DNA of 64,000 bases from the NCBI GenBank assembly GCA_050949565.1, contig JBMNFY010000008.1, positions 320,001-384,000 on the forward strand, given 5' to 3'. The notes beneath the pieces were generated by a model. That model was given only the letters and a program-made list of their open reading frames with translations, was not told the DNA's origin and searched no databases. Each line of letters starts with the position of its first letter. Within the stretch, counting starts at the first letter, position 1. Below are positions 19,415 to 60,737 of this stretch, in pieces. Both the position numbers and the translations under genes were made by a program. Source of the stretch: Kiritimatiellia bacterium. GTDB lineage: Bacteria > Verrucomicrobiota > Kiritimatiellia > RFP12 > UBA1067.

Positions 19415-22400
19415 TCAGCGGACTTATGACCACGAGACCAGTACTGCGGAAGCGCGCCGTCACGACGCCGTTCGCGTCACACACGAACTCCGCCGTCCGA
19501 CTGGCGCCGAGGTTCTCCGCCTTCCACGCCATCCCCGTGAAGGAGGAACCCGCGCCGATCTTCGCGACGACGGCGCTGCCGCCCGACGGGACGGGATCAT
19601 CGCTCGCGCGTCCGAAGTCGGCGACCACCTGCGTAGCCGTGAGATCCGCGAACGTGAGGCCGTCCGTCGCTTCCGCATCGACATCGAGCGTCAAGATGCC
19701 GAACGACCCTGCGAGCGTACCCACGCCGGAGAAACGGCTGGCAGCGTCCGTCGTGCCCGCAACACACTTGACCGTACCTTCAGCGATCTCGAAGCCGCCA
19801 CCGTTCGCGACCTTCACCGTGGATGACGTCAACTCCGAGTAGACGGGTAAATCTTTCACCATCGCCACGTTCAGGTCGTTCGTGAAGACGAGCGTGCCCG
19901 CCCCGGTTTTCGTGAAGCGTCCCGTGCCGCGCAACGGAATCGCAAGGGTATGGGTGACACCCGCCGCTGTGATAAGCTCGCCGCCGCCCGCATCGGCGCG
20001 GAAGCAGGTCGTCGCGGGGTTCACCACCGTCGAGATGCCGTCGTTCAGCGTGAACTGCGCGTAACCGCCGTCAAACGCGACCGCCGCCGCAGTGCTGCCG
20101 TTCTGCGCGAGGAAGCGATGCACCTTCACGCCACCGCCGCTTGCAAGGACCAGATCGCCCGCAGCGTTACCACCCAGATAGAGATTCTGCGGAGTGCCCA
20201 CCTCGATGCGCCCGCCGTCCTCCACGCGCACGTCAAGGTTGCGATCGAAATACACGCCGCCCGCCTGCGTGCTGGTAACGCGGCGCATCAGGCCGCCCTG
20301 ACCGATGCGGATCACCGGCGCCATGCCGCTGGCATTCGGAGCCCTGAACTGCCAAGTGATATCCAGCGTGCTGTTCGTGATCGCGAGCGTTGTCTGCGGC
20401 GTGTCGGTGTTGCCGCTCTGCTTGCTGTAGCCGATGTCGAGTCCATTCGCCGTAAGATGCGCGTTATCGAGGATCAGTTTCGCGGCGGGACACCCCTGCT
20501 TGATCTGCACATCCACCAGCATGTGGTAGCCGCTGCCGCTGCCCACGACATAGGCGACATCTTTCAGATAAAGTTCCGGTGCGACCGTAGTGTTCCAGCC
20601 GCTGCCGCCGAGGGAGCAGTGATGTTCCTGCTTCACGGTGGAGACGTCCTTGCCTTGCCCCTGGACAAGCACCTTGCCGTCCAGCATCGAGAACTGTCCC
20701 ACGCCATCCCAGCTTGTAACCTCACCGTTCGACGGCGCGAACGTGCCGTTCACATCTTGGTTAACACTGCGCCCCTCCGCGCCACGCACGGAGAGGGTGG
20801 TAGTGCCGCTGGGCACATTGAGCGTGAGTGTACCCGCCCCCGTCTTCACGATACCGCCGCCGGCCGTATTTGCGTAACTGACTTTCAGGTCGTCAAACGT
20901 GAGGTCGCCCACGATGTCCAGCACCGCGCAGTATTCTCCCGCGATGCGTAGCGGACGCGTAAGGGACGTCGCCTCGCCCGTATAGCGGAAGGTGCAGTTG
21001 CTGATCGTGATCGCGGACGCGCTGGCGGAGTGCGCGCCGAGCGCCGCCGCCGAGGTAAACGCCGTCACGCCGCGGTTGAACTTCCAGTCGCCGGACATCG
21101 TGACTTTGTTCGTACCGGCCAGCGTGAGCGTGCCGGAACCGTCCTTCACCAGAGTCGAGGAGTTGCGCACGGGCGCGGATACCGTGAGCGAACTGCCCGC
21201 GACCACGGAGACGCCGTCCGCCACATAGAGCGCATCGTCGCCCGAGAGCGTGACGGGAACCGCCGCCTGCACGGCGAGCGAGCCCACTGCACCCACAGCG
21301 TCCATCGTGATCGCGGCGTCCGAAACCACCGTTGCTACGTCGTTGTGCGTAGGCACGCCTGTGGGCGTCCAGTTGCCGGAGAGGCCCCAAACGCCCGTAC
21401 CGGCATTCCAGGTGTACGCGCCGGAGGTCGCCGACGCCACCGTCACGAACAGGGTCCGGCCGTCCCCGCTCTGCGTGAACGTATAGCTTTTGCCCTTCTC
21501 GGGATTGCCCACCACAATCTGCGCGAGCTGATCCGCAGTGAGTGCCGTATCGAGCGCAAGGACCGTGTGCGCATCGTCGAGCGTGTAGTCCGACGGCAGA
21601 TCGATTATCAGAGATCCTGTGAAGGCAATCGAGTCAGCCGTAATGGACGCCGAGGCGTCCAAAAGCACAAGACGTGCGCCCTCGGCGATCTCAAGCGCAT
21701 TACCAAAGCGCGAAGTGCCGTTCGTGAATGCGAGCGCGCCCTGCGCGACGACGGTCCGTGGATGGGAGGAGTTGCGCATCACTGTGAGCGTGCCGAGACC
21801 GGTCTGCGTGAAGGTTGCGGAAGTGGCGCCACTCGCCGCTGTGAAGTCTTGGTCGAGCGTCACATCGAAGTGCTTTGAGTCGAGCGTGAAGCCACGCGCG
21901 CCGAGTGTCGCCACACAACCGCTCATGAACGGGACCGGCGGCTTAGAGATGCCGGAGACGGAGAGCGTGCCGCCATCCGCCGTAAACGTCATCGTCTGCG
22001 AACCGTCCGCAGGCGAGCCGCCGTACACGGCACGCACGGCGAGCAATGCGTTGGAAGAGAGCGAGACGGCAGTGTTGCCCACCACCGCGCTCTTGTTCGT
22101 GAGGGCCGATCCCGTGCCGCCGCGTAACTGCGCGTTGCCGGCGAGGATCAGTTCCGCGCGCGAGGTACCGCCCATCGTCATTTCGATCGACGACTGATTG
22201 CTGAGCGTGACCACGGCGTCGTCCGTTGCCTCAAAGCGGCCGTAGGCGTCATCCGTGTTGGGTGCCAGGCACATCCAGTTGCCGACAACGGGACTGACGG
22301 AAAGCGTGGCGCGGTCCTTGAGCGTCACGTAGGCGCGCGCCTGTTTCGCGTCCCCCATGTACAGCACACCACCGCAGACAACCGCGGCGTCGTCCTGCGC

Positions 22401-23471
22401 CAAAAGATGCCCCACGGCATTCGAGGACGAACCCATATAGAAGCTAGACGCGCCGTCGAAAAGACCGTGGTCCGTCACCGTCACAATACCGGTGGAACAC
22501 TGCGTGTTACCGAAATAGACGCTATTATGCGAATAGAAGGATGCGTTCTCACGAACGTCGATGCGCCCCTCGTTGCGCAGGTTCACAGCGCTCATATTGC
22601 CCGCACCGAGCCTAACGCCGTTCGTAACCTCCATGCGCGCCGTGCATGTGAGGTCCAGCAGTCCGATCGACTGCCCCAACCCGATGGCGGACCGGTTCCC
22701 AAGGAAAAGTCCGCCCCACGAAACGACCACCGCGTCATTCGTGACATGCACCCAAGTGGGGCCGGCGTTTGCATTCTGATCTTTGAGGTAGATGCCATTG
22801 AGCGAGTGGCGTCCACCCAGAAACGTGGTGTGCGTAACGGCATTACCACGCTGCTGGATTTCGGCGGAGCCGTTGAGCGTCGCCTCTGGATGGATGTTAA
22901 AATATACCTCGCCGCCGTTCGAACCGAGGTAGAGCGGCCTGGCCATGTCGAGCGTTCCGCTCCAGAGGTCGAACTTCTGCTTCGATATGCCCGTCGATTC
23001 CCAGGTAAAAAGGGCGTCGTCAAAACGCCAGACGCGGACTGTGTTTGACACCGTAGAGAGACCTTCGAAATTAAAGATGTGCGTACCCGTGAGGTTCTGA
23101 CAGAACGGCACGCCCCACCACTCGGTGACGGATTTCAAGCCCTTCTTCTCCCAATAGGTGCCGCGCGTGTCGAGTGTGAGCGTGTGCGTACCATTGCCCG
23201 TGCCGAGAAAGATCGTGCCGGAGTTCTCGACGAGACCCTCCGGCGGCGCCTTGATCGTCACGTCGTTCGCTTGGAAGTTGATATAGCCGTATTTCCCGTC
23301 GATGCCGTTTGCCGGCACCTCGCCGCCCGTCCAGTTTGCGGCATCATTGTAAAAGCCCTCCGTCACGGAGGAAAGCCACTGCACGCGGTGCGCCGCATCG
23401 ACCCTCTCTACTTGCGCAAGAACCGCAGAACACACCATGCACACGCATGCGAAAATCATCGTCTTTTTCAT
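19415..23471 (-). CDS. Large secreted beta-helix protein with passenger-associated (PATR-like) repeats and no beta-barrel; the +1 base at 19424 removes its stop
   Basis: Signal peptide; repeats LVKDGSGTLTL, IVKTGAGTLTL, FTKTGAGTLVF; WxxxxNW motifs; deleting one base gives ...STGLVVIVR-TGA at 19415. Confidence 0.8.
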
Positions 23472-23539
23472 ATTCGACCCCTTTCTTGTCCCGTCCCCAG
23501 TTCAGATACCTGCATATTGTACGCATCTCTGTACCTACC

Positions 23540-24981
23540 AAGGAGTTTCCCCAAAAAATCTGGTCATTCCAGAAAGACCAGTCCGAGCGGGTTTGATTCG
23601 GGGTCTGGCGGCTTGTAGCCGTACCATTTCCCGTGGCGCGTGAAGAGCCTCCCGAGGCCGTCGGCGACGGCGTAGTGGAGGAACTCGGCCACGCCGTAGA
23701 TGCGCTTGGCGGCGTGGGTGATGTTGGTCGTCAGGATCTCGCAGCGCAGCCGTCCGGCCAGCCAGACGCAGTTGAAGTAGATGACGGCCAGCAGCAGAGC
23801 GACCATGTTTTTCAGGCGCCGGTACGTCAGGACCCGGACGTCCTCGAGGTTGTAGCTCTGCTTGACGAAGCGGATCGCGTCCTCGACGCGCCACCGCGTC
23901 AGATAGCCCTCGACGACCTGCCACAGGGACTTGCGCGACGTCGTCCCGGCCAGCGTGGTCAGCAGGAGCATCGGCCGCTCGCCGAACCCCTTCACCACGA
24001 CCATGCGCAGGGGCTTGTCGGGCCTCTGCGGCAGGGCGACGGTCATGGCGCCGAACTCCAGCTTATAGCTTTTCACCCCGTCCCCCGTCTCCCTCGTGAC
24101 GATCTCGATGTGCTTCATGGGGCAGGATGCCGCCAGTTCTTCGGCCAGCGCGGTCCGCCGGCCGTGGAGCAGGTTGCGGTTGCCCACGAGGCGCACGATG
24201 TAGTCCAGTTTGCGCCGGTCCAGGCCGTCGAACAGCCAGTCTCCGTCGCCTCCGCGGTCGATGACGTAGATGCCGCGCTTCTTCGCGCGGGAGCTGATCT
24301 GGTCGATGACGCCGAGCACCTCGTCGTTCTGGCTGATGAAGCCCTCCGCCTCGCTCGACCACAGCCGCATGTGCAACGGCGTGATCCGGCGGCCGCCGCT
24401 CTCGCAGGCGACCGCCAGGCAGGCGCTGTATCCGTTGCCGATCTCCCCCGTGCTCCCGTCCCGGACGCGGGCGAGATATTCCATCTTCTTCGCGTACAGC
24501 TTACGGATGTCGGTCGGGTCGATGACGATCAGCGTGTCCTGATGGACGTGACGCGAGCCCAGACGGGCGACAGCGTCGGAAATCCCCTGCTCGATGCCCT
24601 CGCTCCCGAGCATCCGGCTCAGCCTGTCCTCCAGTTTCTTCATCGATATCGGCTCGTCGAGCGCGCGGGCGATCCGGCTGAGCTTCACGTCCTGCGACGC
24701 CTGTATCCCGTAGACCATGTCGCCCACGAACTTGCCGAGCGGCTTGGAAAACCGGGGGGAAAGTTCCCCCAAAAAATTCTTGAGTTGCTCTCGCGCTTTG
24801 AACGCCGTTGCGCTATGATTCATGTCGGTTTTCCTTTCCGGTTTTTGGTTGAACCGCCATTTTGGCAGAACCGGCGGAGGAAAACCACTTTTTCACTTTC
24901 AGGCACGCCCGTCAGAGACGCATCCCCTTTGTTTTCAAGGACTTAGATATAATTGCCCCCGATTTTTTGGGGAAAGTCCTT
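23540..24981 (-). mobile_element. IS4-like insertion sequence, 1442 bp
   Basis: 21-bp terminal inverted repeats AAGGAGTTTCCCCAAAAAATC / AAGGACTTTCCCCAAAAAATC (20/21); 10-bp direct duplication TGTACCTACC at 23530-23539 and 24982-24991. Confidence 0.93.
23564..24823 (-). CDS. DDE transposase (IS4-like)
   Basis: IVIDPTD, VIDRGGD and YLTRWRVEDAIRFVK (YREK signature). Confidence 0.93.
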   Translation of the reverse strand: MNHSATAFKAREQLKNFLGELSPRFSKPLGKFVGDMVYGIQASQDVKLSRIARALDEPISMKKLEDRLSRMLGSEGIEQGISDAVARLGSRHVHQDTLIVIDPTDIRKLYAKKMEYLARVRDGSTGEIGNGYSACLAVACESGGRRITPLHMRLWSSEAEGFISQNDEVLGVIDQISSRAKKRGIYVIDRGGDGDWLFDGLDRRKLDYIVRLVGNRNLLHGRRTALAEELAASCPMKHIEIVTRETGDGVKSYKLEFGAMTVALPQRPDKPLRMVVVKGFGERPMLLLTTLAGTTSRKSLWQVVEGYLTRWRVEDAIRFVKQSYNLEDVRVLTYRRLKNMVALLLAVIYFNCVWLAGRLRCEILTTNITHAAKRIYGVAEFLHYAVADGLGRLFTRHGKWYGYKPPDPESNPLGLVFLE

Positions 24982-25012
24982 TGTACCTACCGTCAACGCC
25001 GCTTTTTCAGCG

Positions 25013-25300
25013 TAATCGGTTAGTGACAGGGGCATGCGAGTTGAGTGCGTGGTTTGTGCCCATTTTGGTACTCACGAGTCAGGCGAAAATACCAGTGCGG
25101 CGGCAAGCGGTATTCCGCGCGACGCCGCTTTTTAAGCACAAGTGCGGTGGCAGGGTGGCGCGCAAAAGCGGTGCAGCGACCCGCGCGCAGCGCGGCTCTT
25201 GTCATCGCACTCCAAATTTTCCGCCGCGCCACGCGCGGCACAACCTTTATGCGCCCGCGCAGCGGGAAATCACGTCAATCTTGTCAATCATGTCTAAAAA
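25013..25300. repeat. Composite repeat region (boundary motif, two REP-like elements, GACATGATT module)
   Basis: TAATCGGTTAGTGACAGGG identical to 57148-57166; 25165-25300 is an inverted and rearranged copy of 53911-54055. Confidence 0.8.
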
Positions 25301-25517
25301 CGCACCCCCTTTTCGTCAGGAACGCATGGTCTTCGCACTCCCCCGTCACCAACCAAACACTGAAGGGGTGACTCCGTCCCTGTTAATCTTGTATAATGCG
25401 GGCAACAACAGAAAACGAAGGAAGCTGCCGCGATGAATGTCGGCTGATGCGCACTGACGACTCACCAGCGATCGGCGCGGCGATGGCAGGTGTTTGAGGG
25501 TGTGACTGCTAAGAGGT

Positions 25518-26888
25518 ATGAGTGTATCCATGCGTAGAATGATTTTGGCCATAATGGTGTCCGTCTGCGCGGCGGCAGCAGCGCGGTCGGAAGTTGTGGA
25601 CCTAGGCGAGGTTTTCAGCAAGGCAGAGAGCTGGACGCTCGGCGCTGAAACTTTTTTGGGTGACTACCAGAAGTTCGGATTCCGTTTCCTTGACGACAAA
25701 GGCAGCGCGATGTCGTCCGACAAAGAATCGTTACAATTCTTAGGCCAACCGGTTTTCGAAGCGCGCGTCTACTTCACGGCATCATCGCTGCGCCGGATTG
25801 AGCTTTCAGTCTACAACAAGGGTGATGCTGGCGTAAGAGACCGCGAGGCTTTTGACGCACTGGCGGAGAAGACTAAGGCGGACATAAGCGGCCACTTGCA
25901 GGACAACGGGATGGCCGGCAAGACGACCAGCGAGCGCGCTAATTACGTGGTCAAGCGTCACCAATGGGTCAAACGCACGCCGGGCGTGCAACTGGAGTGG
26001 GCTTATGTCGAGCCGCACCGTTCGCGCGGTGAAAGCGTAGCGTACAATGCCGAGTACATCAAGGTGGTGATGGTGCCGCTCAAAAAAGGCGGAAGTCCGA
26101 TGACCGCGATCACGGGGGGAATGCAGGCGAACCGTGCGAAGAGCGGCAGAGTCATAAAGGAAAATGTGCAACGCAATGAAGATGGGGATGTCTGGATCGA
26201 AAACGTACCGATGGTCGACCAAGGCCAGAAGGGTTACTGCGCGGCGGCTGCATCGGAACGTATACTGCGCTATTACGGGTTGGCGGTAGACCAGCACCAG
26301 ATCGCCCAACTCGCAGAGACTGCGGCGGAGGGTGGCACCACGATCGAGGGCATGGCCGTAGCCGTGGGCAAGATCGGCCGACAATTCCAGTTGGACAAAC
26401 GTGATCTGATCTTGATCGATTCAAAGGGCAGTTTCGAACGCAGCGAACACATGAAACAGCTTGATCGGTATAACGCTACGGCAAAGAAAAAAAAGGCGAC
26501 CGTGATAGACTGGAAGGAGTTTACGACCGACAATGTGGTGGACCTGCAGGCGATTTGGCAAGCGATGGACCCCGAGATCCTTCTGACGGCCAAGAGCACG
26601 GAGCGGCAGGACATGAACAAGTTTATGCGAAACATCAAGACCTATACCGAACAGGGGGTACCGTTGTTGTGGTCGTGCCTGGTGGGTATGTATCCGGAAG
26701 AGCCGGAACTAGGTCAGCCCGGTATTTTCGGTCATGTACGCCTAATCATCGGCTATAACGAAAAAAACAACACGTTGCTTTATTCGGATTCATGGGGGCC
26801 GCGCCATGCCTTGAAGCGTCTGCCTTTTGATCAGGCGTGGGCAATGACCAAGGGGCTGATCGTTCTAAAACCAAGAGATGTGAGGTAA
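25518..26888 (+). CDS. Secreted C39-like (papain-fold) cysteine peptidase
   Basis: Signal peptide; VPMVDQGQKGYCAAA (Q...C), GHVRLIIGYN (H), YSDSWG (D). Confidence 0.75.
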   Translation: MSVSMRRMILAIMVSVCAAAAARSEVVDLGEVFSKAESWTLGAETFLGDYQKFGFRFLDDKGSAMSSDKESLQFLGQPVFEARVYFTASSLRRIELSVYNKGDAGVRDREAFDALAEKTKADISGHLQDNGMAGKTTSERANYVVKRHQWVKRTPGVQLEWAYVEPHRSRGESVAYNAEYIKVVMVPLKKGGSPMTAITGGMQANRAKSGRVIKENVQRNEDGDVWIENVPMVDQGQKGYCAAAASERILRYYGLAVDQHQIAQLAETAAEGGTTIEGMAVAVGKIGRQFQLDKRDLILIDSKGSFERSEHMKQLDRYNATAKKKKATVIDWKEFTTDNVVDLQAIWQAMDPEILLTAKSTERQDMNKFMRNIKTYTEQGVPLLWSCLVGMYPEEPELGQPGIFGHVRLIIGYNEKNNTLLYSDSWGPRHALKRLPFDQAWAMTKGLIVLKPRDVR

Positions 26889-26898
26889 CGCAAAAGAA

Positions 26899-28578: not shown

Positions 28579-28595
28579 GATTTAGGAATTAGGAG
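28568..28595. repeat. Heptamer tandem repeat TTAGGA(G/T/A) x4
   Basis: ttaggag ttaggat ttaggaa ttaggag; supplies the ade stop codon. Confidence 0.9.
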
Positions 28596-28664
28596 TTTTT
28601 TATCCCAATCGGGATCGCTATCGGTATCGAAACTCGTAACAAAGCCTATAAGAAAGGTTCAAGC

Positions 28665-30471: not shown

Positions 30472-30482
30472 AGATGTGACGC

Positions 30483-41168: not shown

Positions 41169-44100
41169 ATGAAAAAGACCGTTCTGTGTGGAAGATCGGA
41201 AGCAGGAAAAATGTGCGTCGCGCGAAACGTGAAACGGATGCGGGACATCATAGCCTGCGGTGTCCTCTGGTCGCTGTGCACGGGGTTGAGTATCGGCACG
41301 GCGCGAGCTCAGGATGTACCGGTGACGGAAGTCGTCACAAACGGCACCGTGATTACATTCAACGTGAAAGGTGGTGACACGCTTCAGTATGACGAACTTC
41401 TCACCGACTCCACCACCGCCCTCCACAAGTACGGCTACGGCACGCTTGTCATCACGAACAACAACCAGTCTTATACCGGCCCTACCACCATCCACGCCGG
41501 CATTCTCAAGATGTGCCACCAGTGTGCGCTCGGATTGCCCGAGGGCGGTTCCGACCAGGCCGCCACAGGGCACCCGATCACGGTGGAAGACGGCGCGCAG
41601 CTCTACACCGAGCAGCCGTGCGTAAATCAATCTTTCCGACATATCCCGCGTCGGGCCGTCTTGTCGGGCAGTGGTCCGGGGGGGGACGGGTGCGCTTGTG
41701 TGTAACGGCATATCGTCGGCCTCTTGGGCAAACAACGACTCCTGGATGTATTACATCGAACTTGCCGCTGACGCAACCGTACGAACAGTCAAGTTTCGTT
41801 ACGGTCTCAATAACACGGATCTAAAAGGGCACACACTCATGATCGACGGCGACGGAACCATCGCGTTCACCGGCCTTCAGAACAAAAGCGCCGGCACGCT
41901 ACATCTAAAGAGATGGACGACTGTTCAAAATCCAATGACGTGTGCCGGGGGAGCGGATGGACGGTTTCTGGTTGACGGAAACCAACTGAACTTCTGGAGC
42001 GGCGATCACCAGCTTGTCTGGACAACCGTGTTCACGAACAATGCATCGGCGAGCGCAAATGGAACATGGACCAGCGGGGGACGAAACACGCTGCAGGGAC
42101 CGGTCGTTTTCGCGGGGCCGACAGCGTTCTATCAGCAAAACGCCACGGCCGACCACTCCTTCAAGATCACGGGGCCCATTTCTGGTCCGGGCAAGATGAC
42201 CGTGAGCGGGACGCGCCTTGAGGTCGTGTTGAATAATACAGCGAACACGTTCACCGGGCAGGTGGCGATTGCAAGCGGCGTCTTGAGGGCCGAAACGCCG
42301 CAGACGCTGCCCGATTACGACCAGACGTCGAAGGTCACCCTGAGCTCGGGATCGGCCACGCTGCGTTTGCCTGTGGGTGAGGGCGGCTGGGACGCGGCGA
42401 GCTACAATGCAGCCGTTTCGGCTGTGACGTACGCAAGCGACGGCGGCGGACGCGTTCTGGCCTGGACGGATGCGGGCGTGACGACCGAATGGGACGCGGC
42501 GACAGCGTTCTCCGGTCCCTTCCTCGCGCACGGTGGCGCGGGGAGCCTGTCGTTCGCCGGAACCGTGCCGAATGATGCCTCTACAAAGATCCAGAACTGG
42601 GGCGGCACGTTGACATTGACGGGCAACCGTACACGCTACATGAAAAATCTTCGGGCCATTGCCGGCACACTGATTCTCGACGATGCCGGCACCCTTTATT
42701 CGTGGGACGTGAACGAGAACGCTGCAGGCGCATGGCACCGGGTGGGCGGATTGGGGTCGTCAACCATCGACGGTTTGGTGCTCACGGCACCGACGCGCCT
42801 TGTCATGAAAAGTGGATCGACGATCATCGGCCCCATGGCGTATTCAGGGAAGGTGGGCGTGTCCCTCTTCATCGGCGAACGCGGGAAGCAAGGCGCCATT
42901 TTCGAGATCCAGAAGGGCGCGGTGTTCACGAACAAGGTCACTGTAGGCTATGACGTTTCCGAAAAAGGTGCCGTCCATCAGTTCGGCGGCGAGGTCTACA
43001 ACACCACCGACGGCGGTCATGACACCTATCTGGGGCGGGCGCAGGATTCGTACGGCTACTACGGACTCTATGGCGGGCACTACGCACTCCGCAACTGGTT
43101 CGGGCTGGGACACGACATCGCCTCGACAGGCGTCTTCGAGCAGCGGGGCGGTGTCTGTGAATTCGCAAGCATGTGCGTCGGGCGTGGCGGCTGGTCGTCC
43201 TTCCTGATGGCGGGTGGCGAGGTGCGCGGTAGTGTGCTCACTGTCGGCAACCAGTTCTACGGCAATCCAGGAGGAGGAGGCATGGCCACCTTCACGATGG
43301 CGGGCGGCGATGCGTACATGACACTCAGCGGGAGCCTAGCGTTGAACGAGCGCACGAATGATTTCACGTCCGTCGCGAATCTCAACGCGGGCGTGATCGA
43401 GACACCGAAGATTGAGTGGAGCACCCGTTACCTCACCAACCGCAAGGACAAGAACAATACGCATACCTATCTGAACTTCAACGGCGGCACGTGGAAGGCC
43501 ACGCAAGACACCACCGCCCCATTCGGCGTAGGCGACTCGCTGGTGGAGCGCGTGACCGTGTTCCCAGGCGGCATCGGCGTGGACACGGCCGGAAAGAACG
43601 TCACGCTCAACTCGGGACTGCTGCGACCGGAAGGGCGCGGCGTCGCCTCAATCACATTGCCGTCAGACATGGACAAGACCGGCTATGTCGGTTCGCCCGA
43701 CGTGCGCATCACGGGCGGCGGCGGTACAGGCGCGACGGCATTCGCGCTCTACAACCCGCAAACGCTCTCCGTCACGGGCGTTGTCGTGACCTGCGCGGGT
43801 TGGGGCTATACGAGTGCACCTACGGTGATGATCCCCTCGGGCGACCGCACCACCAATACCACGTTCACGGCCGTCCTCACAGCGGCGGACCAGACTGCGG
43901 GTGGCATCACGAAGAAAGGCGCGGGCACGCTCACGCTCGCGTGTACCAACCAACTCGACGGCCCCACCGTAGTGCAGGCGGGCACGCTGGCCGTGGCAGA
44001 TGCGAAGGCGCTGCCGCTGGCGGCCGACCTGACGCTGGGCGCCGGCGCGGTCTTGGACAACACCTGCGGCACCCTGCTCACATTCACTCCTGCCACGCTG

Positions 44101-44421
44101 ACGGGACTGGGCGGCGAACTGAAGGGTGCGAACCTCACGGTGGGTTCGACTTGGATGCTGCCTGCGGACGACCTCGCTACCAACGCGGTCATGACGCTGA
44201 ATGGCGCACTGTCATTCGCGGACGGCGCGGTTGTGAGCGTGTCGGGCGAGGCATCGCTCGCGACCAAGACGCACGTCTTGGTGAGGACGACAGGCGGTAT
44301 CACGGGAATGCCCGACCTCGACCTTACGACACTGAATAACGACAAGTATTGGCAACTCGCCCGCGACGGCAACAACCTAGCGCTGATCTATGCGGCAGGT
44401 ACACTGATAATGCTACGGTAG
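41169..44421 (+). pseudogene. Secreted passenger-repeat beta-helix protein split by a +1 frameshift in a G8 tract (ORFs 41169-41705 and 41671-44421)
   Basis: PATR-like repeats in both parts (LHKYGYGTLVI, ITKKGAGTLTL); G8 at 41678-41685; G7 restores SGSGPGGTGALV; ends AAGTLIMLR. Confidence 0.8.
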
Positions 44422-44426
44422 AGGCC

Positions 44427-45257
44427 ATGGCCGACTTTTCACCAGAAACCTCGATCTGGAGGGCTGTGGCTTGCGCTTTGCTTGCCGGCGCGGCGTTGCT
44501 CGGATTCGCCGCCGATACCACTATCGTATCGCGTCAGGCGGATCTCGTCGCGAATCGTACACCCGGCATCTGGCCTGTTGTCAGTCACGCGACGGACCGT
44601 CTCCCGCGCCGCGTTGTGGTCGGCCTCTTCAACTGGGAGAACACGGAGAAGCGCTTCGACGTGCCTCTTGTTGCGTTGGGACTGCCTGAAGCGGGCACCT
44701 ACATCGCGTTCGACCTCTGGCGCAACGCGCTCACCCCGCCCTTTCAAGGCCGCCTCGTCCACACACTTCAGCCGCAGGGCAGTACCGTGCTGACCGTGCG
44801 TCCGGTGCTCGACCGCCCGCAACTCATCGCCACCTCGCGCCACATCAAACAAGGACTGCTTGATGTCACTACCGAGCGTTGGGATGCCACCACACGCACC
44901 CTCTCAGGGGTCAGCGAAACAGTCGCTGGCGACCGTTATGAGCTATGCATCCTCACCTACACAAACGATGCCGCCGCGCCGGGGCATCCCGCGCGCGGCT
45001 TCGTAGTAGAATCCGCCGGCATCACCGGTGCCAACGGTTATGAGCTGGTCATCGCGCCCGGCGATGGCGTTGCGATGCGCCCGGATGACGCCTACGCCAA
45101 CCCCAACACGCCGGACGCCCCGATGACAACACTGTACGAGCCGGTGGCTGAAAAAGGGCTCGTACGCTTTGCCTTTATCAGTGGAAGCGGCGGCTCGGTC
45201 TCGTGGCGCGTCACTTTCTCTGACCGCCCCGCACCGGCCGCCGCCGATCTCCGTTGA
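44427..45257 (+). CDS. Secreted protein resembling the C-terminal beta-sandwich region of alpha-galactosidases, without a catalytic domain
   Basis: Signal peptide then VVGLFNW...LGL...YIAFDLW...RPQLIATSRHIKQG; recognised by eye only. Confidence 0.55.
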   Translation: MADFSPETSIWRAVACALLAGAALLGFAADTTIVSRQADLVANRTPGIWPVVSHATDRLPRRVVVGLFNWENTEKRFDVPLVALGLPEAGTYIAFDLWRNALTPPFQGRLVHTLQPQGSTVLTVRPVLDRPQLIATSRHIKQGLLDVTTERWDATTRTLSGVSETVAGDRYELCILTYTNDAAAPGHPARGFVVESAGITGANGYELVIAPGDGVAMRPDDAYANPNTPDAPMTTLYEPVAEKGLVRFAFISGSGGSVSWRVTFSDRPAPAAADLR

Positions 45258-52151: not shown

Positions 52152-52178
52152 TCCTGCAAAAAATCCCAAATCCTATTT

Positions 52179-52549
52179 GACATGATTAACATGATTATTG
52201 TGCCGTGCGCGGCGTGGCGGCGAAATCTGGAGTGCGGTGACAAGAGCCGCGCTGTGCGCGGGTCGCGGCACCGCTTTCTCTCCGCGCCGTGCGCGGGCAC
52301 ACTGTCGAATACACTTAGTCGCCACACCTAGTGCTTTGTTTCATTTGTACAGCGACACTAAAGGGCATGGCTACGGTAATAATTGATTCGCATTAGTTTG
52401 TCTGGGAGCACGCTGTTCCCAAAAAACCTCCGTGTTCTCTGTGCCTCTGTGAGAGAAAAAAGCCGAGCCATGCTCCCAAAAATCCTTCGTGCCCTTCGTG
52501 CCTTTGTGTGAGAAAAAACAGAGCAGTACCCCCTGTCACTGACCGATTA
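52179..52549. repeat. Composite repeat region between convergent genes
   Basis: GACATGATT module plus GGAGTGCGG REP (52179-52277); triplet-linker array at 52390-52549 ending in the inverted boundary motif. Confidence 0.8.
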
Positions 52550-52561
52550 AGTTTCAACCGC

Positions 52562-53848: not shown

Positions 53849-53910
53849 GCCCAAACCGCCCTGCATAGTCAAGCGAGTCTTGAGCCCCTGAAGGTGAAGA
53901 TGGGATACCG

Positions 53911-54055
53911 TTTTTTTAGACATGATTTCCCGCTGCGCGGGCGCATAAACGACATGATTGACATGATTGATGAACGTTGTGCCGTGCGTGGCGCGGCAGA
54001 AAAATTTGGAGTGCGGTGACAAGAGTCGCGCTGTGCGCGGGCGCGGCACCGCTTT
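53911..54055. repeat. MITE-like composite repeat
   Basis: Direct copy of 52179-52277 and inverted copy of 25165-25300. Confidence 0.8.
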
Positions 54056-54117
54056 ACACCCACGCCCACCCAGTCCTCATTTTACTCCCGCAATGGGATC
54101 TACATTCCACTTCCGAC

Positions 54118-54909
54118 TCACTCTTGATCCCACACCTTCATGAGCATTCGCGTTGCGAGATACGTAATCAGCGCATAGACGAGGCCGAAGGCTATCGCCC
54201 TGCCGGTCTCAATCATGAGTGGCGTTCTGTTTTCGACCCGAATTCTGACCCAGCGCAAGTACCAAAGCCCGAAGGATGGGATAAAACCGATCACCCAAGC
54301 ACCGAAGAGATGAAAGCCGATAGAGATGCGTGTGGACATCGAAACAACCATTTCCACAAGAAAGACAAGGAGGAAAACGGCGAAACCAAGCATTGGAATG
54401 GAAAGCAGACTTCTCAGGGCGTGTGAGTACTCTGCGTATATGGGCAGTTGTCCGAACATAACGCGAATCACCGAATTCCACTGGGGAGATGTGAAGTGAT
54501 TGACGAGGAAGATGGCCATCACAGGAATGAGCGAACACATAGGAATCACGTACAGGGTAAGCCATGAGAAGAGCCCTCGAAATCTCTTCGGTAAAGCACA
54601 CGGTCTTTCACTATCCGACGGCAGGAGCACGTCCTGAGGTTTTTCGACGCTTTGCTTGTTCTGACCAAGCTTGATAACCGCCACGATGACGATCACGATT
54701 CCAATAGGGCAGGCGACCCAACCGGCCATTGTCGCGTACAGCACAAAGCGAATGTTATCGGCAAGCCCTTCAGGTTGCGGCTGGGACTGGGCAAGATTTA
54801 CGAACGCCAGAACCATGCCGATGACAGTCCCGATCACGCCCCAGACCGGACCTGCAGCGAGAACGATGCCCGCGCCCAACCAACAGATCAATTTCTCTTT
54901 TCTGTTCAT
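54118..54909 (-). CDS. Membrane protein with an N-terminal MotA/TolQ/ExbB-like helical pair
   Basis: GPVWGVIGTVIGMVLAF resembles the GLLGTVxGMIxAF motif; followed by a second multi-TM region. Confidence 0.55.
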   Translation of the reverse strand: MNRKEKLICWLGAGIVLAAGPVWGVIGTVIGMVLAFVNLAQSQPQPEGLADNIRFVLYATMAGWVACPIGIVIVIVAVIKLGQNKQSVEKPQDVLLPSDSERPCALPKRFRGLFSWLTLYVIPMCSLIPVMAIFLVNHFTSPQWNSVIRVMFGQLPIYAEYSHALRSLLSIPMLGFAVFLLVFLVEMVVSMSTRISIGFHLFGAWVIGFIPSFGLWYLRWVRIRVENRTPLMIETGRAIAFGLVYALITYLATRMLMKVWDQE

Positions 54910-55033
54910 CCCTGATCCCAACGACACATACCATACAAAACCGGCCTTGCCCTGTCGAACGCAGTTTCGGGCACGAGGATACAAGTAAACTTGCACGGTT
55001 GCATTTCTCTGCCGCACTCCGTACACTAGTTGC

Positions 55034-56329
55034 GTGATGACGACCTTTTACCTTCAAAACGTGCGGATTCTGGATCACGCGCGCAACCGCGATGAAATCG
55101 CCGATCTTTACGTGCGCGACGGGATGATCGTCGCCTGCTCCGCTCCCCCCGCAGACGTGCCGCGCATCAATGCCGACGGCCTGCTGGTCGCGCCGGGCTT
55201 CTGGGATGTCCATGTCCATTTCCGCGATCCGGGTGCCCCCGCCGCCGAAACGCGCCGCACCGGTGCGGCCGCAGCTGCGGCCGGCGGATTCACGCGGGTC
55301 GTGACCATGCCCAATACCATGCCCGCTGGCGACACGCCCGCCTGGGTACGTGAGCAGATTGAGGACGACCTGCCGGTCCGGATTCTGCCTTCCGCCTGTA
55401 TTACTCAGGGTCGGCAGGGACGTGAAATCGCCGACCTCGATGCCCTCGCCGCCGCCGGTGCCGCCGCCTTTACCGATGACGGCGCAATGGTCGCCGACGA
55501 TGCGGTCATGCGCGAAGCGATGACGCGCGCCAAGCGGCTCGGCAAGCCGATCATGGATCATGCGGTCGTACCGGCGATTGCCAAAAACGGCGTGATCCGT
55601 GACAGTACGATTGCGCGTCAATTGGGGCTGCCGCTCTTCCCGCCCGAAGCCGAGGTCGAGGCCGTGCTGCGCGATATCCGGCTCTGCCGCGAAACCCGTT
55701 GCGCCACGCACATCCAGCACGTCTCGTGCGCCGATTCGGTGGCGGCCATCCGCGCCGCGCGTGCTGAGGGCTTGCCGGTCACCGGTGAAGCCTCGCCCCA
55801 CCACCTTGCAATCGCCGCCGACGATATCCCTGGCGATGACGGCAACTACCGCATGAATCCGCCGCTCGGTAACCATGAGGACGTACGCGCTCTCCGCGAC
55901 GGCGTGCTGGACGGCACGCTCAGCCTCTTCGCCACCGACCACGCGCCGCACACCGCCGCGACCAAAACCCGCGGCTTCCTCAAAGCCGCGTTCGGTGTCA
56001 TCGGCCTCGAAACTGCGATTGGCGTCACGTGGGAAATCATGGTTCTCCAAGAGAGCCTCTCCCCACTGACGTGGGTTGCCCGCTGGACTACCGGCCCCGC
56101 CGCGTTGCTAGGTTGCCCCGCGCCTTCCCTCGCGCCCGGCGTGCTCGCGGATCTCGTGGTGATCGACCCGCGAACGCCATGGCGCGTGACGCCCGACACC
56201 TTCCGCTCGCTCTCGCGTAACACACCGTTCGGCGGCTGGACGCTACACGCCCGACCGGTGCTGACGGTCTGCGAGGGCCGCATCACGTTCACGGACCCGA
56301 AAACCATCACTCTGGAGGAACCCGCATGA
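55034..56329 (+). CDS. pyrC: Dihydroorotase (type I)
   Basis: PGFWDVHVHFRDPG, MPNT, FTDDG, HIQHVS, EASPHH, MNPPL, ATDHAPH, SRNTPF. Confidence 0.93.
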   Translation: MMTTFYLQNVRILDHARNRDEIADLYVRDGMIVACSAPPADVPRINADGLLVAPGFWDVHVHFRDPGAPAAETRRTGAAAAAAGGFTRVVTMPNTMPAGDTPAWVREQIEDDLPVRILPSACITQGRQGREIADLDALAAAGAAAFTDDGAMVADDAVMREAMTRAKRLGKPIMDHAVVPAIAKNGVIRDSTIARQLGLPLFPPEAEVEAVLRDIRLCRETRCATHIQHVSCADSVAAIRAARAEGLPVTGEASPHHLAIAADDIPGDDGNYRMNPPLGNHEDVRALRDGVLDGTLSLFATDHAPHTAATKTRGFLKAAFGVIGLETAIGVTWEIMVLQESLSPLTWVARWTTGPAALLGCPAPSLAPGVLADLVVIDPRTPWRVTPDTFRSLSRNTPFGGWTLHARPVLTVCEGRITFTDPKTITLEEPA

Positions 56330-57150
56330 CCCCTGACTTTTTCGAAACCGCCGCCGCCGCGCTGCCTGATATCTGCCGCGAACCGCCGCCGGATTGCGGC
56401 ATGATCCTCGGCTCCGGTTGGAGCAAAGCACTGGCCGTTGACGCGCCGCTGTTGCGCCTGCCCTACAGTGAGATTCCGGGGCTCGGTGCCAGCACGGTCG
56501 TCGGCCACGCCGGCGAGTTCCTGCTTTTCGACCGCCACGGATTGCGCATCGCGGCCTTTATGGGCCGCCGTCACTGGTATGAGGGCGCGGGTTGGGGACC
56601 GGTCGTGATGCCCGTTGAACTGTTGCGCCGCTTGGGCACCCGCAACCTGCTAATCACCAACGCCGCAGGCAGCATCACGCCCTCGTTCACCCCCGGCGAC
56701 CTGATGATCATCCGTGACCACATCAATACGGTCGGCATTTCGCCGCTCATCGGACCGGTCATGCCCGGCTGGGGACCGCGCTTTCCGGATCAATCGCAAA
56801 TCTACTCACCCGCGCTCATCGACCTGCTGCGCAAAGCCGCGCACGATGCCGGCACGGCTCTTCGCGAGGGCGTCTATGCCTTCACCTCTGGTCCCGTCTA
56901 TGAAACCCCGGCCGAGATCCGCGCTTATGCCGGCATGGGCGCCGATGCCGTCGGTATGTCCACCGTGCCCGAAGCCACGGTCGCGAACGCCGCTGGCCTG
57001 CGTACCGCCGGCCTGAGTTGCATCACCAACATGGCGGCCGGCATCAGCGGCCCGAACCTGTCGCATGAAGGGGTGATCGAACAGACCCGCAAGACATTGC
57101 CGCTCATGGCGGCGCTGCTCGACGCATTTTTGATGCATCTCGCTCAGTAA
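56326..57150 (+). CDS. punA: Purine nucleoside phosphorylase (trimeric type)
   Basis: ILGSG, GHAG, GRRHWYEG, TNAAG, DHIN, GPVYETPAE, VGMSTVPE, SCITN. Confidence 0.93.
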   Translation: MTPDFFETAAAALPDICREPPPDCGMILGSGWSKALAVDAPLLRLPYSEIPGLGASTVVGHAGEFLLFDRHGLRIAAFMGRRHWYEGAGWGPVVMPVELLRRLGTRNLLITNAAGSITPSFTPGDLMIIRDHINTVGISPLIGPVMPGWGPRFPDQSQIYSPALIDLLRKAAHDAGTALREGVYAFTSGPVYETPAEIRAYAGMGADAVGMSTVPEATVANAAGLRTAGLSCITNMAAGISGPNLSHEGVIEQTRKTLPLMAALLDAFLMHLAQ

Positions 57151-57701
57151 TCGGTTAGTGACAGGGATGTGCGAAGATCATGCGTTTTTGGAGAAAAGGA
57201 GAGCCGAGAGTCGGGAGCGCGGGCGTCCTCGCCCGCAACAACGTGTCTTGCGATTTCTGTTTTATCCGCAGATTTGCGCAGATTGCGCAGATTTTCTCTT
57301 TTTTGTTTTTGACCGTAGGAGGGGAGAGACGAGCGTCTGCTCGTCCGCGGGCAAGCAGACGCTTGCCCCTCCCCGCCGAAGCGACCTCTTCGAAATCATG
57401 TCAAAAATGAAACCAGTTCTTAACCATGAAACAAACCCGAGCAATGCCATCTCCAAAAAAAATCTGTGTCCATCTGCGTCCATCTGTGGTTAAAAAACCG
57501 AGCACGGTCTTTTCGTGTATTCCGTGTGTTTCGTGGTTAAACAAACCCGAGCAATGCCCCCAAAAAACCTTGGCGATCTTAGCGTCTTGGCGGTTCCAAA
57601 AACCGAGCAATGCGCCCCCAAAAACCTCTGTGCTCTCTGTGTCCTCTGTGGTTAAACGAATCCGAGCAATGCCAACTCCTAAATCCTAACTTCTAACTCC
57701 T
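57148..57701. repeat. Composite repeat region containing a linker-triplet array (five CCGAGCA linkers)
   Basis: Boundary motif 57148-57166; palindromes at 57213 and 57321-57374; CCGAGCA at 57437, 57498, 57547, 57603, 57662; heptamer tract 57674-57701. Confidence 0.9.
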
Positions 57702-58880
57702 ATGTTCCCTCATCCTACCCCAGCTTTCGTCGTTGATGCCGCCGCCCTCGAACGCAACCTCGCCATCTTGGGCGAAGTCAAACGCCGTACCGGCTGCCGC
57801 ATCCTGCTTGCGCTGAAAGCCTTTTCGATGTTCAGCGTCTTTCCCCGTATGCGGCGCGTGTTGGACGGCTGTTGCGCCAGCTCGGTGTATGAAGCGCGCC
57901 TCGCCCGCGAGACCTTCGGCGGCGAGGTCCACGCTTTCGCCGCCGCTTTCTCTGAAACCGAAATGCGCGAGATCGTGACGCTGGCCGACCATGTGACGCT
58001 CAACTCCTTCGCGCAGTTCCGCCTGTTCCAGCGTGTCGTAGCCGAAAGCGGACGCGATGTCGTCTGCGGTCTGCGCATCAATCCGGAACACTCCGAAGGC
58101 GCGGCCGAAATCTATGACCCCTGTGCGCCGCGTTCGCGTTTAGGCGTGCGCCGCGCGGCCTTTGACGGCGAAACGTTGCACGGCGTGACCGGGTTGCACT
58201 CGCACACCCTGTGCGAACAGAATGCCGCGCCGTTCGTACGCACGTTGGCCGCGATCGAAAAACGCTTCGGCGACCTGTTGCCGCGTCTCTCCTGGATCAA
58301 TTTCGGCGGCGGTCACCACATCACGCGGTCTGACTACGATCTTGATCTGCTGTGCGACACACTCAACGCATTCCGTACGCGCCATCCGAATATCGAAACC
58401 ATCTACCTCGAACCCGGCGAGGCCTGCGCCCTCAACGCCGGCACGCTCGTGGCGACCGTGCTGGATGTGGTGGACAACGACATGTCCATCGCCATTCTCG
58501 ACGCCTCGTGTGCCTGTCACATGCCGGACGTGCTGGAGATGCCGTACCGTCCCCGTGTCTTCCGCGACGCCGCCTGGAGCGGTCAGGCCAGCCCCGGCCC
58601 GGAAGCCGACATCGGCTGTGACCCCGGTGTCAAGGCCCACACCGTACGGCTTGCGGGCGCCACCTGCCTCGCAGGCGACATCATCGGCGATTGGTCGTTC
58701 GACACGCCGCTTCAGACTGGCGACCGCGTGATCTTCGAAGACATGGCGCACTACACAATGGTCAAGACCAACACCTTCAACGGCATCCGCCTTCCCTCGA
58801 TCATGTTACGCGAGCCTGACGGCACCCTGCACACCGTACGCACCTTCGGTTACGAAGACTTCAAAAACCGTCTGTCGTAA
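57702..58880 (+). CDS. nspC: Carboxynorspermidine/carboxyspermidine decarboxylase
   Basis: TPAFVVD, LLALKAFS, ASSVYEA, LRINP, YDPCAPRSRLG, HTLCEQ, NFGGGHHIT, EPGE, HMPDVLEMPY, CLAGD, YTMVKTNTFNG. Confidence 0.95.
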   Translation: MFPHPTPAFVVDAAALERNLAILGEVKRRTGCRILLALKAFSMFSVFPRMRRVLDGCCASSVYEARLARETFGGEVHAFAAAFSETEMREIVTLADHVTLNSFAQFRLFQRVVAESGRDVVCGLRINPEHSEGAAEIYDPCAPRSRLGVRRAAFDGETLHGVTGLHSHTLCEQNAAPFVRTLAAIEKRFGDLLPRLSWINFGGGHHITRSDYDLDLLCDTLNAFRTRHPNIETIYLEPGEACALNAGTLVATVLDVVDNDMSIAILDASCACHMPDVLEMPYRPRVFRDAAWSGQASPGPEADIGCDPGVKAHTVRLAGATCLAGDIIGDWSFDTPLQTGDRVIFEDMAHYTMVKTNTFNGIRLPSIMLREPDGTLHTVRTFGYEDFKNRLS

Positions 58881-59000
58881 TCCAAGATTGATTGTTCCGA
58901 TGCTAAGGTTTTTGTTACACTCTGATTCGCAATCTGTTGGTGGTTTGGTTACGCGGCAGATGTGAACGAGACGCATCGCCTATAAGCAGAGGAGAAACGC

Positions 59001-60737
59001 ATGACAGCAAAACCTCATTCTCTGATCTTTCTGATCGCGTGGGGAACCTTGGCCGCCGCTTTTGCGCGGGGAGGCGTCTACGACGACTGTGCCGCATGGT
59101 GGCACTTCGATTACGATCCCAATGCTGACTACAAGGCTGATGTCGATGAAATCCGCGACCAGCGCGACTGGGGCACCGCAGCGAACAAAGGTGTAACCGG
59201 CAAGCACGCGACCTCCGTTCACGGTCCGTCCGGCGGGCCGCAATGGATCGACACGCCGGAACTCGTGACGCCGGCAGGCGGCCAGAACTACGGCCGCAAA
59301 TCGATCCTATTCCAACCTGCCGTCGACAGCAAGACCAACTGTTGGCCGAACACGTTTCGAGTGTCGAATCTCTATCTCGCGGGTGATGTCACCCTCGTCA
59401 CGCGTTTCCGCTGGGATGGGTATGTCACAGAAATTCAAAAAACGGCCTGGCTTTTTAACATCGGCATGGCGTGGAACCAATATACTGGATGGCTCTTCGG
59501 TATAGACGGCCCCTCTTCAAACCTGACGTTTTACAGCCAAAAAAGCAGCGGCCTCCAAATGACTACGACGTCCGTCACACCCGGCATTTGGTATGACGTG
59601 GCACTGGTCGTAAAGGACAACAGTACGACCGAACCTACCGATACCGTGGAATTTTACCTGTGGCCGCAAGACGGGGCGCTCAGGTACCAGAAGCGTACCA
59701 CCTCCGTCATCACGAACGCCATCGGTACGTTGGGCTGCACCATCGGATGCGAGGCTACCACAGCCACTTACGAGGGCGGCAACGCACGCAAGGCCTTTGC
59801 CGGCGCGCTCAATCATCTGGCCATCTGGAATCGCGCGCTCTCAACAGATGAGATCAACGAGGCGTTTGGCTCGCCACAACCGCTCTTCCACATCGGCCTC
59901 AAGAACGACCGCGCAGGAGATCTGCGGACCGAGTGGGAAGCCGACGCCGAATACCAGCCCGGCGCCCCCTGGCACACCATGCGGCGCGCGGTCTCGGGCA
60001 CCCACCCTGAGGCCACAATCAAGCTGCTTGTGAACGCGCAGCAGGCGGCTCTCGGTTACTTTTTCCATCTGCGGACCCAAGAGGTGGAAAACGAAAAGTC
60101 AGCGGATCTCCGGCTGATCGTCAACACCGTGACCAATGCCGTACGGACCGTAACATCCGGCCAGGATCTCTTCTGGTACGTCGCCCCCGGCACTCTGGTG
60201 GCGGGGACAAACAGTGTGACGCTTCAATACGCCTCGGGACCGGCGAGCTACGCCATCTTCGACTGGCTCGAACTCGCTGGTTCCTGGCAGGTCGGCTATG
60301 ACGACGGCTCTCAGGCCGAGTTCGCATTAGAAAGCTCCGCGCCAGATGATTTTTATGTAACCAACCCGAACTGGCAACACCTAGAGCGAGCCATCACCCG
60401 CGATGACACGAACGTCAACGTGCATTTCAGCCTCTCCCGCGAACTGGCCGAAAAATACGCCTTTGAGTACACCACGCGCATTATTGGGCAAGGAGGCGCC
60501 AGCGCACCCCATGCGTTCAGCGTGGATATTAACCAGACGACATTCGCCAGTTTCGCTCCGGTCCAGAACGGCACCCTCAGCACCCTCCCCCTCAACCGTG
60601 GGCTGCTGCAGGCAGGCGACAACATGGTCAGGTTCCGCTACGACGGTGATCCTACAGTAAGCGGATACCTCCAGTTTGACTTCCACCGGCTGGAGATACT
60701 CCTCTTCCCCCGAGGGTCGCTACTCATGTTGAAGTAA
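59001..60737 (+). CDS. Secreted LamG-like domain protein with two C-terminal beta-sandwich (CBM-like) repeats
   Basis: Signal peptide, AAWWHFD, PGIWYDVAL, FAGALNHLAIWNRALSTDEI; repeats ending FDWLEL / FDFHRL; C-terminus PRGSLLMLK. Confidence 0.7.
   Translation: MTAKPHSLIFLIAWGTLAAAFARGGVYDDCAAWWHFDYDPNADYKADVDEIRDQRDWGTAANKGVTGKHATSVHGPSGGPQWIDTPELVTPAGGQNYGRKSILFQPAVDSKTNCWPNTFRVSNLYLAGDVTLVTRFRWDGYVTEIQKTAWLFNIGMAWNQYTGWLFGIDGPSSNLTFYSQKSSGLQMTTTSVTPGIWYDVALVVKDNSTTEPTDTVEFYLWPQDGALRYQKRTTSVITNAIGTLGCTIGCEATTATYEGGNARKAFAGALNHLAIWNRALSTDEINEAFGSPQPLFHIGLKNDRAGDLRTEWEADAEYQPGAPWHTMRRAVSGTHPEATIKLLVNAQQAALGYFFHLRTQEVENEKSADLRLIVNTVTNAVRTVTSGQDLFWYVAPGTLVAGTNSVTLQYASGPASYAIFDWLELAGSWQVGYDDGSQAEFALESSAPDDFYVTNPNWQHLERAITRDDTNVNVHFSLSRELAEKYAFEYTTRIIGQGGASAPHAFSVDINQTTFASFAPVQNGTLSTLPLNRGLLQAGDNMVRFRYDGDPTVSGYLQFDFHRLEILLFPRGSLLMLK

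Follow-up and report, generated by a model that had tools for sequence, protein, structure and literature searches.

A nine-residue C-terminal tail as a candidate surface-sorting tag of exported proteins in some Kiritimatiellia

To our knowledge, the small C-terminal sorting signals described in prokaryotes all rely on a membrane-spanning segment and an intramembrane enzyme. Short free hydrophobic C-termini are also bound by β-augmentation or in a groove, as with the β-signal of the β-barrel assembly machinery (BAM) and with PDZ-ligand tails, including those through which DegS senses the C-termini of outer membrane proteins. The panel of known sorting signals is tripartite in the part of the source available, with a signature motif, a hydrophobic segment of transmembrane (TM) helix length and an Arg cluster, and the 20-residue CGP-CTERM is the shortest of the four signals described there (bioRxiv 10.1101/2023.06.07.544157). 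The element considered here is a C-terminal tail of about nine residues, carried by proteins encoded in a 64,000-nucleotide stretch of a Kiritimatiellia genome (the window, G000:C8:320001-384000; source assembly of 4.66 Mb, 60% GC, 21 contigs). Homologues of the window proteins bear Kiritimatiellia names. The tail behaves like a modular, strictly terminal and lineage-restricted tag that takes the place of PEP-CTERM in some of the Kiritimatiellia. With somewhat better than even confidence, it is read as a genuine sorting or retention tag, the equivalent of PEP-CTERM in some members of the class, by which non-enzymatic glycan-binding or adhesin-like proteins would be kept on the cell surface. 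The retention role is suggested by the position of the tail, by the type of cargo and by analogy.

Open reading frames (ORFs) were called with a crude caller of our own, based on a codon log-odds score with greedy resolution of overlaps, which gave 3022 ORFs covering 86% of the genome. The pattern G.[LIVMF]{4}[RK]$, with which the original prediction had proposed to scan the proteome, was found at the end of 37 of these, where 0.17 would be expected from its internal rate (75 occurrences in 1,322,008 internal positions). It ended only 4 of 14,487 rejected ORFs. When the motif was shifted by one residue from the end 2 matches were found, by two residues none, and the motif without its Gly gave 6. 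A 9-residue profile iterated from the pattern seeds scored 68 of the 3022 ORFs, or about 2% of the proteins of the genome, at 10 bits or above, compared with 0.2 for a null made up of internal windows; 63 of them scored at least 12 bits. Read up to the free C-terminus, the consensus of the tail is P-[SR]-G-[TS]-[LV]-[LIF]-[LFIM]-L-[RKQ]. The invariance of the Gly is partly by construction, because the seed fixed it, and a Pro stands two positions before it in 21 of 63 tails. At the DNA level the information lies in codon positions 1-2, with 0.2-0.5 bits at third positions and 0.04 bits in the 40 nt after the stop, which argues for selection on the peptide rather than on a DNA element. The final 24-mers of the tail genes are distinct in 66 of 68 cases. 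Three ORFs ending GSVLLLK are copies of one another (G000 C1:51920-52903, C7:253568-254551 and C17:1064204-1064485); the two of 327 aa are identical over the stretches shown, the third is a 93-aa piece, and none belongs to a Pfam family. They look like a repeated element with a chance match to the pattern.

The position of the tail was compared among homologues in two carrier families. The first contains the LamG-type protein of the window. Among its 91 database relatives, 63 carry the strict tail and 11 a variant of it (e.g. GTQISLR), 12 carry a full and 1 a cut PEP-CTERM, and 4 are truncated. Tail and PEP-CTERM alike start a few residues past an FD[FY]HRL motif, from which 13-19 residues run to the end with the tail and 27-37 with PEP-CTERM. 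At the LamG loci of species-representative genomes, the tail was found in 27 of 27 readable loci labelled as Planctomycetes-Verrucomicrobia-Chlamydiae (PVC), and PEP-CTERM in 3 of 3 readable Planctomycete loci, one further Planctomycete locus being unreadable in frame. The 27 tail loci come from metagenome-assembled genomes labelled by their submitters as Kiritimatiellia, Verrucomicrobia, Lentisphaeraceae, Victivallales or Akkermansia. In the databases, tail homologues are named 'hypothetical' or 'LamG-like', and PEP-CTERM homologues are named as PEP-CTERM proteins.

The second family was retrieved from 1.84 billion representatives with the last 160 residues of a β-helix protein. This protein comes from G269, a genome that is better assembled than that of the window and belongs to a different family of the class. 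Among the 150 best hits, the ending ...VDMGAYE-x(3-8)-P..GT-hhhh-R is found in 11 and PEP-CTERM in 4, 2 of the latter directly past VDMGAYE, and most of the others have other C-terminal modules. The module ...[FY]YR[IVL].V..P is shared by the C-termini of many giant β-helix homologues from other lineages, and Bacteroidota-type homologues have ends (...KLVIK) that resemble the C-terminal domain (CTD) of the type IX secretion system (T9SS). Judged from their sequences, these homologues show several alternative end modules after one repeat family, namely ...[FY]YR[IVL].V..P, ...KLVIK and PEP-CTERM. 'Choice-of-anchor' domains, as named by NCBI, precede alternative anchors. 'Choice-of-anchor Q' (NF041518) is the NCBIfam name of the domain that precedes the tail, and it stops about 11 residues short of the C-terminus in 2 of the 3 G269 tail proteins tested. 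The tail is retained in orthologues down to about 40% identity, with a variable linker before it. On sequence grounds it is placed in the PEP-CTERM slot in two unrelated families.

Within the window, the tail proteins and the ORFs that adjoin them are as follows:
59001..60737, plus strand: gene of a 578-aa LamG-type protein, secreted, with Laminin_G_3 and an N-terminal signal peptide
41671..44421, plus strand: main ORF of a PATR-repeat β-helix protein, 916 aa, PATR repeat by Pfam
41169..41705, plus strand: N-terminal fragment of the PATR gene 41671-44421, with a signal peptide and another PATR repeat
19415..23471, minus strand: gene of a large secreted β-helix protein with a signal peptide, about 1352 aa if a frameshift is corrected
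18753..19391, minus strand: downstream lipoprotein-type ORF with ankyrin repeats, lipobox-like ...VYGSGC and weak Ank hits

Two of the three tails that had been predicted for the window were read directly and the third after a 1-nt correction. The LamG protein ends in ...FPRGSLLMLK, with the tail PRGSLLMLK, the last seven codons at 60714-60734 and the stop at 60735-60737. Its Laminin_G_3 domain agrees with its earlier description as an unrelated LamG protein. The PATR ORF ends in ...LIYAAGTLIMLR, with the tail AAGTLIMLR (GTLIMLR-stop) and the last seven codons at 44398-44418. It is the distal part of a split gene, as a frameshift in a G8 run at 41678-41685 separates it from the fragment 41169-41705. 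Read uncorrected, the large β-helix ORF (18753-23471, minus strand) gives ...STGLVVISPLTV... / ...RFRSTGLVVISPLTV... and continues in frame into the lipoprotein-like ankyrin ORF. Removal of one A at about 19424 yields GLVVIVR followed by TGA (stop 19417-19415), with tail and stop spanning 19439-19415 on the minus strand. When the last 350 residues were searched against 21 genomes of the same family, 4 of 4 orthologues with an aligned C-terminus stopped at the same place (SSGLAIFIR, SSGLAIYVR, GTGLVFYIR and GGTLILMR), which bears out the indel correction made in the original prediction. The ORF 18753..19391 is separate from the tail protein, and its in-frame fusion to 19415..23471 is solely an effect of the frameshift. 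Signal peptides had been claimed for all three proteins; they were found on the 59001 and 19415 gene products, and for 41671 the peptide lies on the separate fragment 41169-41705. Similarly, autotransporter-type repeats had been assigned to two proteins, of which 41671 has PATR and the 19415 protein has it only under the Pfam cut-off (17.3 bits). As had been stated, the GH2 (two), CE15, GH51 and DUF1080 enzymes of the window are all without the tail when their ORF ends are checked.

Some further features adjoin these genes. A DDE transposase gene (23564-24823, minus strand) lies beside the large tail gene, and five transposase copies or relatives ending ...PESNPLGLVFLE are found beside other tail genes (G000 C17:818569, 840399, 1767984, 1883127 and 1886097). 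A low-scoring ORF at 44349-45257 (plus strand) overlaps the end of the PATR gene and has a Melibiase_C match (E 1.3e-5); it may be a remnant or mis-framed piece of an α-galactosidase. The GH2-type genes 10691-13681 and 13608-16637 (minus strand) overlap by 74 nt on the same strand, and the start of the downstream gene, 10691-13681, has probably been extended too far by the choice of the longest ORF.

The tail had been proposed to form a terminal β-strand, which was not borne out by the monomer models of the two carriers modelled, where it is coil. In the AlphaFold2 model of the LamG protein (56 homologues, mean predicted local distance difference test score (pLDDT) 91.7), the last strand is 556-567 (...FDFHRLEIL); the chain from 568 to 578 is coil, and pLDDT is 65 in the last block. 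In that of the last 200 aa of the PATR protein (19 paralogues, pLDDT 84.1), the last strands are 178-183 and 186-191 and residues 192-200 are coil. The tail is predicted to be a free flexible extension outside the fold in two unrelated carrier types. A flexible, strand-prone extension on adhesin-like or lectin-like cargo, often very large, would also suit an assembly element, whose free C-terminus inserts into a neighbouring subunit or surface lattice in a donor-strand-like manner and so builds a coat rather than addressing a protein. This is unlikely, as the last domains of the carriers are unrelated (LamG jelly roll, PATR C-terminal module, choice-of-anchor Q), so that a common acceptor groove is not obvious, and homologues have PEP-CTERM in its place, which serves for sorting rather than as a strand for assembly. 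Prediction of a complex of three copies of the LamG C-terminal domain with its tail (residues 436-578) gave no support, which is evidence neither way.

The cargo is lectin-like or adhesin-like (glycan-binding) rather than enzymatic, and mostly exported. Pfam searches of the 68 carriers (E<=1e-5) detected PATR in 24, Laminin_G_3 in 19 and both in 4, PA14 in 4, legume-lectin-like domains in 2 and F5/8 type C in 1. Big_5, PKD, PD40 and HpiC1-like domains were found in a few, and a FAD-oxidoreductase domain on one PATR protein. The same searches detected no glycoside hydrolase, sulfatase or peptidase domain in any carrier and no domain at all in 23. One of the 68, a phage minor-capsid-type protein, scores weakly for the tail and was probably picked up in error. 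The median length is 841 aa for the carriers and 366 for the remaining ORFs. Sixteen of the 68 tail genes have an adjacent same-strand fragment upstream; homopolymer slippage was rejected as the general cause, with a run of at least 6 at 1 of 14 listed junctions, and the breaks may be assembly indels, pseudogenes or phase variation.

With their last 12 residues removed, the carriers fall into 18 single-linkage blastp clusters, of 47, 3, 2 and 2 members and 14 singletons. The predominance of one cluster could suggest that the tail has no function of its own, having been inherited as the end of a small number of families that have expanded, or arising from the DNA or termination context, as TAA stops are somewhat over-represented (29 of 68 compared with 901 of 3022). 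This is very improbable. The 14 singleton clusters carry the tail as well, its conservation is not at the DNA level, it is kept in distant orthologues while the linker varies, and in the models it lies outside the fold.

The taxonomic range was examined by scanning 301 genomes of the phylum for the DNA pattern G-[TS]-h4-[RK]-stop alongside a reversed control. In the genome of the window 45 sites were found, 34 of them at tail-ORF ends, with 3 in the control. Other members of its family (f1) gave, for example, 40/1, 33/1, 29/5, 24/2, 21/0 and 19/0 (hits/control), and high counts were also seen in f2 (51/2), f5 (20/3 and 19/5) and, elsewhere in the class, f25 (34/2). The 15 small genomes of f3, from the same order, have zero to three hits, and all 200 genomes of other classes are at background. 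A variant ending in K/N/Q/H, considered as a possible form of the tail in other classes of the phylum, gave the same picture, with those classes at background. Among these 301 genomes, the tail is confined to some Kiritimatiellia families (f1, f2, f5 and f25). The 17 tail-rich genomes have a median of 2 PEP-CTERM matches (PF07589, E<=0.001; range 0-8), compared with 10 (range 1-35) in the other 33, and the Spearman correlation between tail and PEP-CTERM counts is -0.66. The contrast is statistically overstated, because related genomes are not independent. Most PEP-CTERM frames of f3 are of 170-300 aa and so represent other cargo.

Several points weigh against the tail as a sorting tag, the kinship of the genomes just mentioned among them. 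The last residue is not always basic (R38, Q8, K6, N3, H3, F2, L1, E1 and Y1 in the LamG family), and with 47 of 68 carriers in one cluster much of the tail count is paralogue expansion. The distributions of tag and cargo are inseparable, because the LamG family was not found in the 32 tail-poor genomes, in a search without a positive control. The test for signal peptides in the genome of the window is weak. A permissive heuristic gave no enrichment (28/68 tail ORFs and 1217/2954 others), although this heuristic is positive on 41% of all ORFs and is useless for the purpose, and a stricter predictor gave 20/68 and 563/2954. Among the remaining tail ORFs, 16 are distal pieces of split genes, with a signal peptide on the upstream piece in 8. 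This test is poor because many tail genes are split by frameshifts and the predictors are crude. A second test used 13 regions around tail sites of G269, where signal peptides were found for 9 of 14 tail genes and 27 of 118 neighbours (Fisher p=0.0024). Five tail genes scored negative there: the locus ends within 2 of them, and in the other 3 the heuristic rejected a signal peptide that can be seen by inspection. The enrichment in signal peptides that was anticipated is therefore seen in G269 and not, with the permissive heuristic, in the window's own genome.

A further point on that side is the search for a reader. The original prediction had envisaged a lineage-specific export or anchoring system with a co-occurring translocon or peptidase. 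The tail is indeed lineage-restricted, terminal and present on unrelated exported proteins; the partner was not found. Partner tests used 49 class genomes, divided into tail-rich (17) and tail-poor (32) by their DNA-pattern tail counts, and none of five candidates (exosortase, two secretins and two peptidases) tracks the tail among them. Of the five secretin loci in the genome of the window, a 984-aa secretin is present in 48/49 genomes and a second large secretin in 49/49 (by a stricter first look). A secreted Peptidase_C39-like cysteine peptidase with a signal peptide is encoded in the window (25518-26888, plus strand, 456 aa). It occurs in 11/17 tail-rich and 4/32 tail-poor genomes and is missing in tail-rich G074, G197, G206, G152, G269 and G140, so its link to the tail is partial and confounded by kinship. 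Moreover, no recurrent translocon or peptidase was found among the neighbours of the 68 tail genes, of which the commonest are proteins of ~450 aa with RRxFL-type (Tat-like) N-termini (23), transposases and AraC-type regulators.

The exosortase bears on the possibility that the tail is a miniature PEP-CTERM, a shortened derivative with motif, hydrophobic stretch and basic end that is still handled by exosortase. The two share their position, the tail has a loosely tripartite layout including the Pro found in a third of cases, and the genome encodes a 602-aa EpsH+EpsI exosortase though it has only 3 canonical PEP-CTERM matches. On the other side, a stretch of 4-5 hydrophobic residues is too short to keep a substrate in the membrane next to the active site of an intramembrane enzyme. 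The tail also lacks the PEP motif, and no tail is matched by PF07589, whose 3 matches in the genome are small ORFs at other places. Exosortase (PF09721) is present in 48/49 class genomes, including 15/15 of the tail-poor f3, and shows no co-variation with the tail. We consider such a derivative improbable.

PDZ domains bind free hydrophobic C-termini, and the tail could in principle be a proteolysis or quality-control tag, a ligand for a PDZ protease of the CtpA-type S41 or DegS/HtrA type that governs how the protein matures or is turned over, not where it goes. Encoded in the genome are a DegS-like protein with TM segment, trypsin and PDZ domains, a CtpA-type S41 protease with PDZ, a tricorn-like S41 protease and other PDZ-domain hits. 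The DegS-like protein (G000 C17:174691-175806) has 371 aa, an N-terminal TM segment, a trypsin-like domain and one PDZ, and could be a periplasmic sensor of free C-termini. Nevertheless, classical PDZ ligands end in a hydrophobic residue and most tails in R or K, tricorn-like S41 was rejected as a partner (2/17 tail-rich and 17/32 tail-poor genomes), and a tag for degradation alone would leave the exchange with PEP-CTERM unexplained. There is little likelihood that the tail is a tag of this kind.

For the tail as a surface-sorting tag, the following route can be proposed. Sec would export the cargo, the tail marking non-enzymatic glycan-binding or adhesin-like proteins and filling the role that PEP-CTERM would have in Planctomycetes and in tail-poor Kiritimatiellia, which is retention at the cell surface. 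The tag is probably read after Sec export, because 4-5 hydrophobic residues cannot span the inner membrane. A component of the periplasm or outer membrane, rather than an intramembrane sortase, would act as its reader by binding the free hydrophobic C-terminus in a groove or by β-augmentation. The likely route through the outer membrane would be type II secretion, whose machinery is present in the genome of the window. In a cultured relative, Kiritimatiella glycovorans, Sec, Tat and type II secretion are mentioned, and PEP-CTERM, exosortase and C-terminal are not, in the part of the article available (PMC5148204). More tentatively, and at less than even odds, the tail may be the address label of a new Kiritimatiellia envelope pathway, in which a periplasmic or outer-membrane receptor reads a 7-9-residue free C-terminus and hands the folded cargo to the surface, possibly via type II-like secretins.

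Should this reading be correct, the tail would direct surface display after Sec export as a linear C-terminal signal, with no need of a membrane anchor or a folded signal domain. A tag of ~9 residues without a membrane-spanning segment would need a different reader, and would hence indicate that envelope biogenesis in the PVC group includes a step not yet known. It would also flag surface glycan-binding proteins of uncultured polysaccharide degraders from gut, rumen, digester and marine habitats that are now annotated as 'hypothetical' or 'LamG-like', supply annotation pipelines with a new rule, and could serve as a very small surface-display tag.

Among described systems, PEP-CTERM/exosortase (PF07589, TIGR02595) is similar in that its signal lies at the extreme C-terminus of unrelated Sec-exported proteins with many copies per genome, as far as the available part of its description goes (PMC1569441). 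The tail shares with it the junction past the last domain in two families, following a 'choice-of-anchor' domain. It differs in its length (about 9 residues instead of about 24), in having 4-5 hydrophobic residues instead of a TM helix, in having P-x-G-[TS] instead of the PEP motif, and in ending in a single R/K or Q/N/H instead of an Arg cluster. Furthermore, exosortase is present in tail-rich and tail-poor genomes alike. In common with LPXTG, GlyGly-CTERM, PGF-CTERM, MYXO-CTERM and CGP-CTERM, the tail is C-terminal, occurs several times per genome and has a short signature followed by hydrophobic and then basic residues; unlike the tripartite signals, as presented in the available part of the source, it has no hydrophobic segment of TM length (bioRxiv 10.1101/2023.06.07.544157). 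An intramembrane protease is an unlikely reader for this reason, and the earlier judgement that the tail is too short for a TM helix holds. Sortase (PF04203) had no match in the genome, with positive controls in 3 Gram-positive genomes, and no LPXTG was found in the tails.

The T9SS CTD (PF18962, TIGR04183) likewise marks the C-terminus of surface proteins exported by Sec and is recognised once they have been exported, and Bacteroidota-type ends such as ...KLVIK resemble the tail in their hydrophobic residues and K. The CTD is a folded domain with a Pfam model of 75 positions, in contrast to about 9 residues that are coil in two models. PF18962 had 0 matches in the genome; SprA/Sov (PF14349) gave nothing there and was likewise silent in all 14 control genomes. 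Regarding type V secretion, no barrel domain was detected in the Pfam scans of the 68 carriers, in agreement with the predicted lack of a β-barrel on the repeat proteins, and a single Omp85-family gene (BamA) was found in the genome where a TpsB partner was considered, PF03865 not having been searched. The BAM β-signals of this organism are of another type, since 4 of 4 TonB-dependent receptors end in ...ASF, ...FTF, ...CDW or ...YAW, with an alternating pattern and a terminal F/W. In the tail the hydrophobic residues directly follow one another and the last residue is mostly R/K; it lacks the BAM terminal aromatic residue, as had been noted, and its carriers are soluble β-helix or jelly-roll proteins rather than barrels.

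No model in NCBIfam or Pfam covers the tail (whole proteins at E<=1; 5 of 5 40-residue C-termini at E<=10), and no paper tying Kiritimatiellia to a C-terminal sorting signal was found in the open full-text literature, which excludes subscription journals; both results agree with the original prediction, which knew of no formal description but left room for one. A co-occurring processing enzyme, which is also asked of such signals, did not emerge from the five candidates tested, none of which co-varies with the tail. Haft's criteria 1 and 2 for a small C-terminal sorting signal, as given in the available part of the source, do apply to the tail (bioRxiv 10.1101/2023.06.07.544157). The tail is probably an apparently undescribed address tag, belonging to a kind, the C-terminal sorting signals, that is itself already known.

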